Sequence record: KP869105
Reading direction: 5' to 3' (one strand)
From: Escherichia coli O157 typing phage 7
Length of the DNA: 64,000 bases
Shown here in pieces: positions 9,539-37,255 of the stretch. Numbering within the stretch: position 1 is the stretch's first letter; every line of letters starts with the position of its first letter. Made by a program: the position numbers and the translations under genes. Below the pieces are notes generated by a model. That model saw nothing but the letters and a program-made list of their open reading frames with translations. It searched no databases and was not told where the DNA came from.

Positions 9539-9546
9539 TTGAATAA
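9539..9546 (+). promoter_or_regulatory. Late-promoter-like AATAAATA upstream of holin t
   Basis: 7/8 match to TATAAATA about 22 nt upstream of t ATG. Confidence 0.35.
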
Positions 9547-16663: not shown

Positions 16664-17221
16664 TTAAATGGAAAGATACCATCCGCTGTAGTTGCTTTTT
16701 CTTACAACTTTACGAAGGTCTTCTCTGTCACCGATGAACTTCGGAGTGTACTGGATGACACCTGGATGAATTTCTTTAGTGTTGAATATAATTATACAGT
16801 CAGCGACTTGATGATTTAGAATGGGCCCTAGATTTATTCCAGAACCATATGGATACTCTCCGCTGCATCCCGTTGTTACCGAAATCCAACGCGAGTCAGT
16901 TTGATGTGTCTTAACTTCTACACGAAGCCCGCAGTATCTTGGATGCGCCAATACATCCCATGCGTATGTATACGGGTCATTAACGTCCTCTTGGCCTTTG
17001 TTAACATACCCGCTTAGCCAATCTGCTACAAAAAACTCTGCGTACACCGCGATACGGCATCTTTCGATAACTTCTGCTTTATCCTGGTTCGGGTTTTGTT
17101 TTAAAGAGTATCTTGCTGTATCAGCAATTTTGACCTTCATTTCACTAGTCAAATCACTGTTCGATAGGGTAAATGTCGGAATCTGAAATAGTCTCTGTAA
17201 ACCCGGATTCGTTTTCTGCAT
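16664..17221 (-). CDS. denB: Endonuclease IV DenB
   Basis: 185-aa ORF, same length as T4 DenB, position between ndd cluster and rIIB; start overlaps upstream ORF by 68 nt (alternative internal start at 17140 possible). Confidence 0.75.
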   Translation of the reverse strand: MQKTNPGLQRLFQIPTFTLSNSDLTSEMKVKIADTARYSLKQNPNQDKAEVIERCRIAVYAEFFVADWLSGYVNKGQEDVNDPYTYAWDVLAHPRYCGLRVEVKTHQTDSRWISVTTGCSGEYPYGSGINLGPILNHQVADCIIIFNTKEIHPGVIQYTPKFIGDREDLRKVVRKSNYSGWYLSI

Positions 17222-17483
17222 TTAGACTTTCCTTTTTACCGCTGAGATAAGCGTTATATACTTTAAGAGTGCCGTAATAAATTCGGTCATTTTCATCTAA
17301 AGACTCACGGTCAAGTTCATCGAGTTCCTTTTTATCCATGACTATAACATCATTGCAATAAAGAAACCCAAGTTTTTTGTGTCCAAACTCAAATTTATTA
17401 CAGTACACAATATTAGCGTGATGATTACCATGTAGAGAAATTTCTTTTATGTCGGAATCACCGATATTCATACAATAAATCAT
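17154..17483 (-). CDS. Hypothetical protein (denB-rIIB interval)
   Basis: 109-aa ORF, RBS AAGGTGA, downstream of hairpin 17501-17516. Confidence 0.6.
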   Translation of the reverse strand: MIYCMNIGDSDIKEISLHGNHHANIVYCNKFEFGHKKLGFLYCNDVIVMDKKELDELDRESLDENDRIYYGTLKVYNAYLSGKKESLNAENESGFTETISDSDIYPIEQ

Positions 17484-17500
17484 AATTCACCTTAAAACAA

Positions 17501-17516
17501 AAGGGCCGAAGCCCTT
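17501..17516 (-). terminator. Intercistronic hairpin AAGGGC-UUCG-GCCCUU
   Basis: GC stem with UUCG loop followed by U-rich tract on minus strand. Confidence 0.45.
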
Positions 17517-17519
17517 ATT

Positions 17520-17714
17520 TTATTTGAATTGTGCAATTCTTTTCTCTAAACAATCTGCATAAGATTTCATTGAGATGAACTGTGAAAGCAGCAGTTCTTG
17601 CTCAACTGCACTAACCGTTAGAAACTTTGCGCTTTCTAAAAATTTGCTCAGTGCATTAATTTTGAGCATTAATTGATCGTATTCTTCTTTTACTCGTGCT
17701 TGATAACCTAACAT
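17520..17714 (-). CDS. Hypothetical protein (64 aa)
   Basis: ORF in track, RBS AAGGAAAAT, flanked by two hairpins. Confidence 0.55.
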   Translation of the reverse strand: MLGYQARVKEEYDQLMLKINALSKFLESAKFLTVSAVEQELLLSQFISMKSYADCLEKRIAQFK

Positions 17715-17728
17715 AATTTTCCTTAGTT

Positions 17729-17744
17729 AAGGGCCGAAGCCCTT
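17729..17744 (-). promoter_or_regulatory. Hairpin AAGGGC-UUCG-GCCCUU overlapping rIIB stop codon
   Basis: Same hairpin family; sits on the rIIB stop. Confidence 0.45.
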
Positions 17745-18681
17745 ATTTAAATTGTTCAGTAACGTCTTCAATTACTTCGTATTGGCAGGTACGCATTTTA
17801 GCGTCGTTGTAATCAATCGGAATTGATACTACATCACGAGGATGAACTTTAACTTTTACAACTCGGCTGGTTGAACCACCGAAGTGACGAATATAAGATT
17901 TAGAACACACATGCAGACCACGAGAACAAGTTTGTGTATCATCGTCATTCACACGAGTACGCGGCATTTTAACTACTTTACCAGGACTGTTATCAAAGGT
18001 ATTTGAGTGACAGTCAAAGTAATTATTGCGAACTACTTTCCAAGCATAGAAGTAACCATCTTCTGTAATTTCAATATCGTTTGCTACCAAGAAATCAAAA
18101 AGTCGAGATACCGCTTTCTGGCTTGGGTTTTCCAGCAGATTTTCCAAGAACGGAAAATAAAATTCAAAGTTTTCGCCTTTTTCCATCGAATCAAGAATAC
18201 GATCAACCAAACCAGACCGCAATTCAATATTTTGATAGAATAAGCTTCCACCTTCAATTCGAACATCGCCGGAAATATATTTTTCAACAGCGCGACGAAC
18301 ATTAATTTTTTGTGCCGCTTCTTCCAGCTTATCCGCTACAAGCAGATTGAGAATTTCCTGGAAGTTTGAATGAGTATTAGGTGTTGCATTATAAGTTACA
18401 CCATCGACAGTAATCGAAATGAATTTTTTAGATGCATTCCAAATAATGTCAGATTTAGTAACTGGAGCAATAACTGCATCGCTATTAACTTTAACTGTAA
18501 TATCACCGCTAATAGTAACTTTAGAGCGTTTAGCTTCTTCAGCATTTTTCAAAACACGACGGATTGTATCAACCGATACACCTTGCCAATCAGCCAATTC
18601 CTGCTGAGTATAATTACCGCTTGAATACAGTTTAACAATTTCAGCTTGTTCGTTTTTGGTCAGGCATTTAATATTGTACAT
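17743..18681 (-). CDS. rIIB: rIIB rapid-lysis/membrane protein
   Basis: 312-aa ORF, identical length to T4 rIIB; N-terminus MYNIKCLTKNEQAEIVKLYSSGNYTQQELADWQGVS; immediately downstream of rIIA. Confidence 0.95.
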   Translation of the reverse strand: MYNIKCLTKNEQAEIVKLYSSGNYTQQELADWQGVSVDTIRRVLKNAEEAKRSKVTISGDITVKVNSDAVIAPVTKSDIIWNASKKFISITVDGVTYNATPNTHSNFQEILNLLVADKLEEAAQKINVRRAVEKYISGDVRIEGGSLFYQNIELRSGLVDRILDSMEKGENFEFYFPFLENLLENPSQKAVSRLFDFLVANDIEITEDGYFYAWKVVRNNYFDCHSNTFDNSPGKVVKMPRTRVNDDDTQTCSRGLHVCSKSYIRHFGGSTSRVVKVKVHPRDVVSIPIDYNDAKMRTCQYEVIEDVTEQFK

Positions 18682-34129: not shown

Positions 34130-34271
34130 ACTTACAATTTAGCGGCTTTCCAGAGTTGTTCAATAATCTCTTGGTCTATTTCTTTAGTTATTTCATTACG
34201 TAATAAAGCAATAAGGGCTTTCGCCCTTTTCTTATTCAACTTTTTGAGTTGACGTTTATTTAAACGAGACA

Positions 34272-34790
34272 TTAATAACCTCGGTCCTGACGAGCAAAGT
34301 TCTCGGCATTTTTCAGATAATAAAGTTTAAAGATTTCTTCTGCTGTAAGACCAAGACCTTGGAACATGTTCAGAACGAAATGGAGAATATCAATCATTTC
34401 AAACTTAATTTCCAGTTGGTCTTGTGGAGACAAATCAGTAATCAGAGTTTCACGACGTTCACCATGCTGCGACTTCCAAGGTTTCCATACAGCAGATGCG
34501 TCTTTTTCACCATTACTCATACCACCAAGAGAAGTCAGAAGTTCACGGAATTCATCATCAATATAATCTTTCTGATTACGCAGCCAATCAACAACTTCAC
34601 CTGCAGTAGCCAAATCATCAGGATGACGGTTATATTCAGGTTTATCTTTAGCTAAACGAACCTGTAAAGATTTCTGCATATCAAGCATAACTTGCAGCGG
34701 GTCTTTTTCATCACCGAGAATATCCCAATATTCATTTTGAGCTTTATCAGCGCCTTCAATCAGTTGTGAACATTCGTTAAAGTAAGCCAT
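34272..34790 (-). CDS. 56: dCTPase/dCDPase gp56
   Basis: ORF track 203 aa trimmed to ATG 34790 (MAYFNECSQ...) with AAAGGAAAAATA RBS giving about 172 aa (T4 gp56 171 aa). Confidence 0.8.
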   Translation of the reverse strand: MAYFNECSQLIEGADKAQNEYWDILGDEKDPLQVMLDMQKSLQVRLAKDKPEYNRHPDDLATAGEVVDWLRNQKDYIDDEFRELLTSLGGMSNGEKDASAVWKPWKSQHGERRETLITDLSPQDQLEIKFEMIDILHFVLNMFQGLGLTAEEIFKLYYLKNAENFARQDRGY

Positions 34791-34861
34791 TATTTTTCCT
34801 TTCAATTCATGGGTTAGTAGATTAATTATACAATAAATATATAAAGCAATAAGGAGGACAT

Positions 34862-35062
34862 ATGGTACAAAAATTAATGGCACTTGTTAATGCCATCAAA
34901 GGTAATAAGAAACGTATAGCTTTTACTATTTCTGCTATGGTAGGAATTTTACTCTGGAACTTTATTTTATCACCAATTGCAATTGCACATGGTGTTAATA
35001 TTCCAGTAGTTACTCTTGATACATTTGTAGATTTAGCATTTGCTTTAGTTGGGTTAATTTAA
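34862..35062 (+). CDS. Small membrane protein on plus strand between genes 56 and 61
   Basis: 66-aa ORF with strong AAGGAGGA RBS 5 nt upstream, two hydrophobic segments; late-promoter-like AATAAATA at 34832-34839; stop overlaps gene 61 stop convergently. Confidence 0.55.
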   Translation: MVQKLMALVNAIKGNKKRIAFTISAMVGILLWNFILSPIAIAHGVNIPVVTLDTFVDLAFALVGLI

Positions 35063-36087
35063 ATCTTAGCATATTTAGATAACCGCATTTTAGCCATCAA
35101 CCCCTGGGCAATATTATTTTTCATATATTCCATAATTTGTTCAGGGGTTGCACCTTCCTTTCTAATCATATCATTAACATCTTTTGATTTCCAGGGAGAT
35201 TTATCCCAAAACATAACCCTTTCTCCTGCATCAACTAATTTAGTCATTCGTTTGATAGTGTCAGGGTGACGAGGTTCATTATCTAAAACCCACACTCGTC
35301 TATCTTTAAATGGAACAATTTCTAGGTCTAATTGACCGCCAGTAATGGCTATACCATTTTCAATAAAAAGTGAATCTATAGGTCCTTCTAGAACATATAC
35401 ATCGCCATCTTTAACTCGTTCGACTCCATATATTTTTGTTGCCTCAGGATAAGCTTTAATGGTGATATATTTTTGAGGAGCATCTTTCTTTAATGCACGT
35501 CCTTGAAAAGACTCAGCTTTTCCATTAGCATTATAAATTGGAATAACAAGACGAGGCTCAGAAATTTCCTTTTTATATGTTCCTGGTGCTATGCTATTAA
35601 CTAATTTAGGCCATTCAGTTGTAAACCAAAGATATTTCCATTTATCCTTTGGAATACAACGAGCTTTTACGTATTTTATAATTGGATGGTCTTCCGCCAG
35701 TTTATCTAATCTAACACATGACGGAAGAGATTTAATTATTTTCTTCTCAGGTTGTTTAGGAAGTTCTTTAGGTTTTTCTACTGGACGACTTTTACCTTTT
35801 TCTTTTCTTATTTCAAAGATATACTCACGATATAAATCAGGTTCAAACTCCTTTAAATATATTCCGATTGGTGCATGATAGTTACAGTTATAACAATGAA
35901 TATTTCCTTCATTATTATCACCATAATACCATCCACGAGCTTTATTCTGGTCGGTTTTTGAATCTCCACAAACAGGGCATCTAAACCGTAATTTAAAAGT
36001 TGAACTATTATTTACTTGTGTGAATTTAGGTAAATGAGCTAATGCACGGTATGCAAACTCATTATCAATCCAAGGTATTGATGACAT
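35059..36087 (-). CDS. 61: DNA primase gp61
   Basis: 342-aa ORF, identical length to T4 gp61; N-terminal zinc ribbon CPVCGDS...CYNCNYH and TOPRIM core. Confidence 0.95.
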   Translation of the reverse strand: MSSIPWIDNEFAYRALAHLPKFTQVNNSSTFKLRFRCPVCGDSKTDQNKARGWYYGDNNEGNIHCYNCNYHAPIGIYLKEFEPDLYREYIFEIRKEKGKSRPVEKPKELPKQPEKKIIKSLPSCVRLDKLAEDHPIIKYVKARCIPKDKWKYLWFTTEWPKLVNSIAPGTYKKEISEPRLVIPIYNANGKAESFQGRALKKDAPQKYITIKAYPEATKIYGVERVKDGDVYVLEGPIDSLFIENGIAITGGQLDLEIVPFKDRRVWVLDNEPRHPDTIKRMTKLVDAGERVMFWDKSPWKSKDVNDMIRKEGATPEQIMEYMKNNIAQGLMAKMRLSKYAKI

Positions 36088-36254: not shown

Positions 36255-36300
36255 ATTAACCTCTATTCATAAAAGCATTAAAAATTTGGTCATCAATAGA
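36252..36300. repeat. 49-bp direct repeat copy A (3' end of ORF 36256-36612)
   Basis: 46/49 identical to 36610-36658. Confidence 0.85.
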
Positions 36301-36612
36301 TGGAATAGCAACCTTTTCGGCATCATTTAGCAAATCATTAATTTCATCAGATAACATAACATATGTGCCTTTATTTCCTGTAATTGTTACTGCACAATTA
36401 CGAACGTTTTCTTTATCAAATTTTAGGTTAATATTTTCGTAGTGAAAATCCTTTAATGCCGAATATATCTTTAAAATGAAATTGTCTTTTACTACAATAA
36501 ACCCAACCTCACTATTAAAACATGGTTCATGGAAACTGTAATAAACCTTTTCATCTATAAAATCGTATGAAATTTTTTCCATTTTTAAATATGAAAATTC
36601 AGAACTATACAT
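36256..36612 (-). CDS. Hypothetical protein, one-domain member of a paralog pair (C-terminus PSIDDQIFNAFMNRG)
   Basis: 118-aa ORF; shares FIVVKDN motif and near-identical C-terminal 14 residues with ORF 36614-37255. Confidence 0.6.
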   Translation of the reverse strand: MYSSEFSYLKMEKISYDFIDEKVYYSFHEPCFNSEVGFIVVKDNFILKIYSALKDFHYENINLKFDKENVRNCAVTITGNKGTYVMLSDEINDLLNDAEKVAIPSIDDQIFNAFMNRG

Positions 36613-36658
36613 ATTAACCTTTATTCATAAAAGCATTAAAAATTTGATCGTCAATAGA
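36610..36658. repeat. 49-bp direct repeat copy B (3' end of ORF 36614-37255)
   Basis: 46/49 identical to 36252-36300. Confidence 0.85.
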
Positions 36659-37255
36659 AACATTTACTTTAGACTGTTCTTCAAACGGTAATTCATATCC
36701 ACATATTACAATTTTGTGATCGATACCAAAATACACAGAAGCAATATGATTAATATTATTTTCAGTGAAATCTAAATCAACATCAATATCTTTTTGACTA
36801 ACGCTCAAAGGATAATTAATACGAATAATTCGATTATCTTTAACAAAGATTCCACCGACATACTCTGTGTTGCGTTTAAAGTTTACACGTTTCCTAAATG
36901 AAAAATATTCAGGTTCTTTATGAGCCCGACTCATAGGACACAATGAGTAGCTAGAATAAGAGATGTCAAATCCTACACCTTCAATATGAGCCAACGTGTC
37001 ATGATTAAACCAATTATAATCATATGCCAAATCCATTATATTGTAATATGTGAAAGGCACCGGATTAACATCATGTGTTGTACCTTTAAAATCTGCCCAG
37101 GCAACGATTTCGTTATCTTTAACAATTACAAAAATTGTGCCAATAAGATATCCACGGTTATTTTCATCAGGCGTTATATTATAACATTGCGCATCAGGAA
37201 ATTTACCGTATTTAAACGGTGGATTTTTGTGCATATAATAAATCATATTATTCAC
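36614..37255 (-). CDS. Hypothetical protein, two-domain member of a paralog pair (C-terminus SIDDQIFNAFMNKG)
   Basis: 213-aa ORF with two (I/F)xVKDN(E/R)I motifs. Confidence 0.6.
   Translation of the reverse strand: MNNMIYYMHKNPPFKYGKFPDAQCYNITPDENNRGYLIGTIFVIVKDNEIVAWADFKGTTHDVNPVPFTYYNIMDLAYDYNWFNHDTLAHIEGVGFDISYSSYSLCPMSRAHKEPEYFSFRKRVNFKRNTEYVGGIFVKDNRIIRINYPLSVSQKDIDVDLDFTENNINHIASVYFGIDHKIVICGYELPFEEQSKVNVSIDDQIFNAFMNKG

Follow-up and report, generated by a model that had tools for sequence, protein, structure and literature searches.

A conserved, probably late-expressed small membrane protein gene between genes 56 and 61 of a dam-less T4-like phage

Introduction

A close known counterpart of the locus considered here is the soc-segF-56-dam-61 segment of phage T4 (NC_000866 15331-18963), in which the genes stand in that order and dam occupies 16846-17625, between genes 56 and 61. 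T4 late promoters carry a TATAAATA-type box at about -13 to -6 and do not need a -35 element; late transcripts in vivo depend on gp55, gp33 and gp45. Late genes also occur within the T4 early region, and for three of these, soc, 49 and e, an xATAAATA sequence lies 19-32 nt 5' of the Shine-Dalgarno (SD) sequence and ATG. In a list of 50 T4 late promoters the most frequent departure from consensus is an A at -13, a position that is poorly conserved in T4 relatives (PMC2988020; PMC1524935).

Two further comparisons bear on the small open reading frame (ORF) that is the subject of this report. One is with the class II holins, such as S68/S71 of phage 21, which are about 70 aa long and have two transmembrane (TM) domains. 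Holins permeabilise the membrane so that endolysin is released at a programmed time, and they have a hydrophilic, charged C-terminal tail. The other is with the RB32ORF030w family (PHROG 2024) of Tequatrovirus, Mosigvirus and relatives, to which the ORF belongs, with agreement in position, strand and sequence and no difference. Members are labelled 'hypothetical' in all the sources reviewed, except for one label of 'Holin' and one of 'putative head morphogenesis protein'.

We analysed a stretch of 64,000 nucleotides from Escherichia coli O157 typing phage 7 (KP869105), referred to below as the window. A sequence-only reading of this DNA had drawn attention to a 66-aa membrane-protein ORF standing on the opposite strand between genes 56 and 61, where T4 was said to carry segF and dam. 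Our own reading, to which as a whole we give a probability of about 0.8, is that the locus is the dam-less majority form, that the ORF is a genuine, probably late gene whose product is predicted to be an N-in inner-membrane protein, tentatively with an accessory role in the envelope or in lysis, and that the phage has no Dam.

Layout of the gene 56-61 interval

The stretch from 34272 to 36087 is 100% identical to Escherichia phage wV7 (NC_019505 / HM997020, Tequatrovirus), whose record annotates the 66-aa ORF, also a 100% match, as F412_gp242, 'similar to RB32ORF030w'. The features of the interval and its surroundings are as follows.

34132-34272, minus strand: 46-aa ORF (F412_gp244, PHROG 14392), filling the slot between soc and gene 56, the position of segF in T4
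34272-34790, minus strand: gene 56 (dCTPase/dUTPase), from the ORF listing; 77% nucleotide identity to T4 gene 56
34825-34849, minus strand: MotA-dependent middle promoter of gene 56, placed by alignment with features annotated in T4 record X01416; Mot box ATTGCTT at 34843-34849, -10 sequence TATAAT at 34825-34830
34832-34839, plus strand: late-promoter-like box AATAAATA (as the T4 consensus, with A at -13)
34850/34851: dam-less junction, the point at which T4 has 878 bp more, from blastn and direct comparison of T4 with the window
34851-34857, plus strand: SD sequence AAGGAGG, ending 4 nt 5' of the ATG of the 66-aa ORF
34862-35062, plus strand: 66-aa ORF, small membrane protein (F412_gp242; RB32ORF030w family; PHROG 2024), from the ORF listing and homologues
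34874-34899, minus strand: terminator-like hairpin and T-run, within codons 5-13 of the 66-aa ORF
35059-36087, minus strand: gene 61 (DNA primase), convergent with the 66-aa ORF, the stop codons overlapping by 4 nt

Most of what had been described from the letters was borne out by measurement. Genes 56 and 61 are 268 bp apart, for an estimate of about 270 bp, and the 66-aa ORF, reported as the sole ORF of the gap, is the only sizeable one there; the other ORF of at least 25 aa wholly inside the gap is a 25-aa frame on the minus strand (34822-34899). The strong ribosome-binding site, the late-promoter-like sequence and the convergent overlap with gene 61 were all found as described, the stop of the ORF (35060-35062) running across that of gene 61 (35059-35061).

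Lying 3' of gene 61, the minus-strand hairpin has an 11-bp stem with TTTTTGT behind it and may serve as an intrinsic terminator of gene 61 transcripts. Both T4 and wV7 have it, and it was not seen in Mosigvirus or the other genera. A search of the window for a plus-strand terminator after the 66-aa ORF found none, so that the ORF's transcript would have no defined 3' end. Hairpins that are GC-rich or long follow the ORF in Jiaodavirus (KpnM6E1, a Klebsiella phage, locus L020, about 1993-2030) and in Gaprivervirus (TH40, locus L015, after 2692). The convergent genes of Jiaodavirus are 18 bp apart, whereas the stops overlap in Tequatrovirus and Mosigvirus, and the Jiaodavirus hairpin could act as a bidirectional terminator.

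The T4 locus and the dam segment

The placement of T4 dam in this neighbourhood agrees with NC_000866. The accompanying placement of segF does not: segF lies between soc and gene 56. Nor does the 66-aa ORF stand in the place of dam, as had been proposed, since T4 carries the same ORF at 17738-17938, between dam and gene 61, with a 97% identical protein. The sequence-only reading had named a pair of findings that together would refute it, and one of these, the same plus-strand ORF in T4, was made; the other, that T4 dam maps elsewhere, was not. Because the ORF is found in T4 alongside dam it is no replacement for dam, and judged by gene order it is a permanent neighbour of the primase gene.

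The T4 copy of the ORF is unannotated in NC_000866, where it falls in a 309-bp 'empty' interval, in KJ477686 and in the original 1984 record X01416, and a collection of 15 billion proteins held no NCBI protein accession for the exact T4 allele. It is called in a de novo annotated T4 assembly. A conserved, apparently late gene is thus missing from the reference annotation, and proteomic, CRISPRi and transposon screens that use NC_000866 may have missed it.

The comparison of 34272-36087 with T4 that had been proposed as a check gave a clean indel that leaves the ORF untouched. T4 and the window share the order and orientation of soc, gene 56, the small ORF and gene 61; the DNA of the ORF and gene 61 is 97% identical, and the T4 promoter P(M)16.53, the primer promoter of oriA (which is noted in NC_000866), is orthologous to the middle promoter of gene 56 in the window. 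Compared with T4, the window has neither segF, with the 46-aa ORF in its slot, nor the 878-bp dam segment; its gene 56 is a more distant allele, and the late box 5' of the 66-aa ORF is different DNA. The T4 surplus (NC_000866 16847-17724) consists of dam and the 99 bp upstream of it, and these 99 bp carry dam's own promoter together with a substitute late box, GATAAATA. On one side of the indel is the Mot box belonging to the middle promoter of gene 56, on the other the SD sequence of the 66-aa ORF. We also considered loss of dam by recombination between the similar minus-strand -10 regions that flank it in T4, and rejected this because the actual breakpoints are elsewhere, after the Mot box and before the SD sequence.

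Dam and SegF in this genome and its relatives

The window and positions 45000-149000 of wV7 together represent the whole wV7 genome, and this was the space searched for Dam and SegF. With T4 Dam, an N6-adenine GATC methyltransferase with a DPPY motif, as the tblastn query the best E value was 0.89, which we count as no homologue; the absence of a Dam-like ORF from the window, noted earlier, therefore stands, and the genome-wide search places no dam elsewhere in wV7. With T4 SegF, a GIY-YIG homing endonuclease, the best E value was 0.05, for a short, weak match in an unrelated region. Positions 1-149000 of the wV7 record contain no methyltransferase annotation. Matches to the motif [DNS]PP[YFW] were examined as possible cryptic methyltransferases and set aside; they lie in unrelated ORFs, one of them AdfA (gp61.2).

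By homology search, then, the wV7-type phage is without Dam anywhere in its genome. With no phage Dam, the phage DNA should carry no phage-directed GATC methylation, and methylation of GATC by an enzyme of the phage's own should be absent. For phage therapy and typing, this means that no added GATC methylation is to be expected from wV7-type phages.

The dam-less junction occurs in identical form in 293 phage records, and T4-type Dam at an identity of at least 90% in about 182. Phage T6 has neither dam nor segF. Mosigvirus, Gaprivervirus and Jiaodavirus have gene 56, then an ORF of the 66-aa type, then gene 61, and in Karamvirus and Kanagawavirus a different small gene occupies the slot. Most close relatives of the wV7-type phage lack dam, the presence or absence of which is a common polymorphism among T4-like phages; by these record counts, the dam-less form is the majority form of a polymorphic locus. 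Since the dam-less arrangement is found in other genera, it is probably ancestral at the 56-61 locus. The locus is in this sense an ordinary arrangement, and hundreds of genomes already list the ORF's product as a hypothetical protein.

Conservation of the 66-aa ORF

We used conservation across related phages to ask whether the ORF is a gene. The loci compared included T4, T6 and representatives of Tequatrovirus, Mosigvirus, Gaprivervirus, Karamvirus, Kanagawavirus and Jiaodavirus. By tblastn the ORF is present in 692 phage records and intact in 686 of them. The protein of the window is identical to YP_007004774 of wV7 and to the copies in RB68, RB51 and others; orthologues in Mosigvirus and Gaprivervirus are 44-55% identical, and a profile search with follow-up tblastn brought in relatives at 25-30% identity in Karamvirus, Kanagawavirus and Jiaodavirus. 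At every locus examined the ORF, on the plus strand, converges with the primase gene, position and orientation being kept in 7 Tevenvirinae genera, and a strong SD sequence is kept in all seven.

Pairwise dN/dS was 0.10-0.30 for comparisons inside Tequatrovirus, inside Mosigvirus and from one genus to the other, and 0.28-0.54 against Gaprivervirus, where dS is near saturation. As the overlap with gene 61 is just 4 nt, this purifying constraint belongs to the 66-aa ORF itself. The comparisons show, at the level of sequence evolution, a genuine gene under purifying selection.

Database searches placed the protein in its own family. The PHROGs search returned only PHROG 2024, with a full-length match (E=1.5e-31, residues 2-66 against profile positions 1-65 of 65), scans against Pfam (E up to 10) and NCBIfam (E up to 1) gave no match, and Foldseek of the AlphaFold model against BFVD retrieved orthologues only. 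A profile search of 1.84 billion representative proteins gave 10 matches, all of them small proteins of the same kind or artefacts. One of the artefacts, a 61-aa 'homologue' in the public assembly P0076, departs from the T4-type protein only where codons have gone from C to T (A>V, T>I, P>L, H>Y and R>C), and the copy almost certainly derives, by this pattern of substitutions, from a bisulfite-converted library assembled as native. Escherichia phage vB_EcoM_Shinka (MZ502379, 17356-17505) retains only residues 17-66 of the ORF, adjoining dam and a 'putative restriction endonuclease'. This copy may be a natural N-terminal truncation, which would hint that the gene can be dispensed with.

Two accounts would deny the locus the significance of a conserved gene, and both are met by the comparisons above. 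The interval could be a regulatory spacer, holding the terminator of gene 61 and the gene 56/oriA promoter, in which the ORF is an incidental antisense open frame. Both the minus-strand hairpin and the middle promoter of gene 56 do lie in the interval, and the curated T4 reference does not call the ORF. However, dN/dS is far below 1, nearly all records have the frame intact, it is kept in seven genera with its SD sequence and late box while the hairpin is Tequatrovirus-specific, and a 66-codon open frame is improbable by chance at 35% GC, so we give this account very little credence. Still harder to sustain is the proposal that the ORF is a lineage-specific cassette, an alternative cargo standing in place of dam and segF at a swap site. 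It drew on the ORF's being the sole gene in a gap where T4 has dam, and is already refuted, as far as the aligned loci speak, by T4: ORF and dam coexist there and in all dam+ relatives examined, segF maps across gene 56 on the other side, and the T4 difference is a clean 878-bp indel with the 66-aa ORF intact. What remains of mild interest once the locus is read as the dam-less form of a common polymorphism is a conserved, probably late gene that the T4 reference annotation lacks.

The putative late promoter

The ATAAATA heptamer is scarce in the window. Counting both strands there are 8 sites (4671 plus, 5181 plus, 9543 plus, 9689 minus, 12307 minus, 34122 minus, 34833 plus and 61947 minus), compared with 38.4 +/- 6.2 expected from shuffles, an approximately five-fold depletion. 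Five of the eight lie 19-32 nt 5' of an SD sequence and ATG, and the ORFs behind these five are a 218-aa ORF (site 4671), a second 218-aa ORF (site 9543), soc, gene 49 and the 66-aa ORF. The T holin is 218 aa long, and going by length we presume the ORF at 9543 to be holin t. Within this window the heptamer alone thus appears to be a fairly specific predictor of late promoters.

The 66-aa ORF has AATAAATA at 34832-34839, a late-gene box that is non-consensus at -13, and in the spacing of its box from SD and ATG it resembles soc, 49 and e. It differs from soc and 49 in that those genes share the strand of their early neighbours, whereas the 66-aa ORF is on the opposite strand; across wV7 positions 1-74961, about 75 kb, no other coding sequence lies on the plus strand.

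Six of the seven genera have an xATAAATA box 20-30 nt 5' of the ATG, with non-homologous flanking DNA. In wV7 and Mosigvirus the box is AATAAATA, in T4 it is GATAAATA (G at -13), and in Gaprivervirus, Kanagawavirus and Jiaodavirus it is CATAAATA (C at -13 in Gaprivervirus); Karamvirus CkP1 has only ATTAAATA there. The wV7 box is on the opposite strand to the divergent middle promoter of gene 56 and falls within that promoter's spacer. The corresponding T4 spacer is without a late box, and the box of the dam segment stands at an equal distance instead. The late box is thus kept by two DNA solutions, with and without the dam segment, which is good comparative evidence for selection on timing.

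Taken across genera, these boxes give strong comparative evidence for late transcription of the ORF, which is probably late-expressed. RNA polymerase with gp55 would transcribe it late in infection, from a start predicted from the box at about 34845 and with a 17-nt leader. We found no transcript 5' end, peptide or phenotype for the ORF in the literature searched, and work on T4 ribosome profiling, transcription start site mapping, CRISPRi-ART/HIDEN-SEQ and antisense late transcripts contained nothing on it.

Predicted topology and function of the protein

Five Lys/Arg residues lie within residues 4-18 of the protein, and no basic residue follows position 18. A clear TM segment spans residues 19-42 (KD about 2.0, Hessa sum +0.4 kcal/mol). 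Nearer the C-terminus, a second hydrophobic stretch (48-66), in which D53 and D57 fall, scores +6.5 kcal/mol. An AlphaFold model (17-sequence alignment, pLDDT 76) has helices at 2-12, 16-42 and 52-65, the last of only 14 residues, and in the alignment the final stretch of the distant homologues is short and polar. The earlier description of a two-helix membrane protein was therefore upheld by topology prediction for the first helix and not for the second, which on these scores is probably not transmembrane. The most likely topology, as judged from simple scales and a medium-confidence model, is N-in and single-pass with about 24 periplasmic residues, the orientation following from the five Lys/Arg that precede the TM segment.

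Viewed as a step in infection, the product would insert in the inner membrane with its N-terminus inside and expose its C-terminal residues, some 24 of them, at the periplasmic face. The residues that are invariant or near-invariant across the family (W32, N33, P38, G44, P48, an acidic residue at 53 and G64) are concentrated, under the predicted topology, in the periplasmic loop and at the TM segment's outer end. Since they are gathered at the periplasmic face, a partner contact there is probable, and the pattern suggests that the protein touches its partner, late in infection, on the outer side of the inner membrane. We have high confidence in a predicted late-expressed small inner-membrane protein that acts at the periplasmic face, and low confidence in an envelope- or lysis-related accessory role for it. 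A more ambitious version, in which T4 and all its enterobacterial Tevenvirinae relatives would carry a late gene, unannotated in the T4 reference, with a specific late role in the envelope (lysis timing, lysis inhibition or envelope protection), is one we put forward as doubtful speculation; if true, a lysis system that is among the best studied would gain a new component.

Lysis timing is also at the centre of a more specific alternative, in which the protein is a holin- or antiholin-like factor that builds up in the inner membrane and causes lesions there or else modulates the T holin or RI. A late-promoter box before a small hydrophobic product is what such a factor would have, and the protein resembles the class II holins in small size, late signals and hydrophobic core, with at least one TM domain (19-42) as holins have. 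Tequatrovirus copies have two close Met codons, Met1 and Met6 with a Lys between, in a dual-start-like pattern; an orthologue in vB_EcoM_OE5505 is labelled 'Holin' in UniRef/BFVD; and the conserved periplasmic loop could, we infer, contact the periplasmic domains of T or RI. However, the C-terminus, ...DLAFALVGLI, is hydrophobic with no positive charge, so that the hydrophilic, highly charged C-terminal domain of holins is absent, and the second segment is too short or too polar to span the membrane as the second TM domain of a class II holin does. The dual-Met pattern is missing in Mosigvirus, Gaprivervirus and the more distant genera, the gene is not beside the endolysin gene, which is about 47 kb distant, and the window already has a late ORF behind ATAAATA at 9543 of the length of T. 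No match to a PHROG or Pfam holin, and no sequence or profile similarity to class II holins, was found. The 'Holin' label is a depositor's, with no experiment behind it, and we rejected it as evidence when the C-terminal charge was found lacking. The T6 label, 'putative head morphogenesis protein', was likewise set aside; the notes in that record are unreliable, for example in calling gp56 'similar to ferredoxin'. A holin is thus disfavoured, and we regard one as unlikely. Much less probable again is that the main function lies in the RNA, a late antisense run into the 3' end of gene 61 shutting off or destabilising early and middle mRNA, with the peptide secondary. Convergent overlapping stops are kept in Tequatrovirus and Mosigvirus, the window yielded no plus-strand terminator behind the ORF, and at some T4 sites the two strands are known to be transcribed at different times (PMC2988020). 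Yet selection is purifying on the protein sequence, length and residue pattern are kept down to 25-30% identity, a strong SD sequence is present everywhere, and read-through would be limited in Jiaodavirus and Gaprivervirus by a hairpin that lies between the convergent genes or beyond them. Given this constraint at the protein level, an antisense-RNA role is insufficient as an explanation, and antisense RNA against gene 61 may be a side effect of what we read as a late gene for a single-pass inner-membrane protein.

Neighbouring genes

Identity to T4 changes within the locus, from 77% in the DNA of gene 56 to 97% in the adjacent 66-aa ORF and gene 61. Belle et al. are said to have described gene 56, in 2002, as the target region of SegF, subject to segF-linked allele replacement, and the divergence of gene 56 fits such a region. 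The slot between soc and gene 56 is variable in content, holding the 46-aa ORF in the window, segF in T4 and two small ORFs in T6. The 46-aa ORF (34132-34272, minus strand) has a weak match to a 'virion structural protein' PHROG (E=8e-6).

Beyond gene 61, two ORFs lie on the minus strand at 36256-36612 and 36614-37246. They include gp61.2, which is AdfA (anti-DarT factor A, Pfam PF23813, E=8.5e-138), and a 118-aa ORF upstream of it, and the two have in common a C-terminal ...SIDDQIFNAFMN(R/K)G. The shared C-terminus suggests, by similarity alone, a partial duplication or an alternative module.

At the start of the window, positions 144-438 contain a perfect tandem duplication of 153 bp (51 codons, in frame) in gene 34, which encodes the proximal long tail fibre. 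NC_019505 has the 153-bp unit once only, which makes the source of the window either a wV7-like variant or a different assembly.
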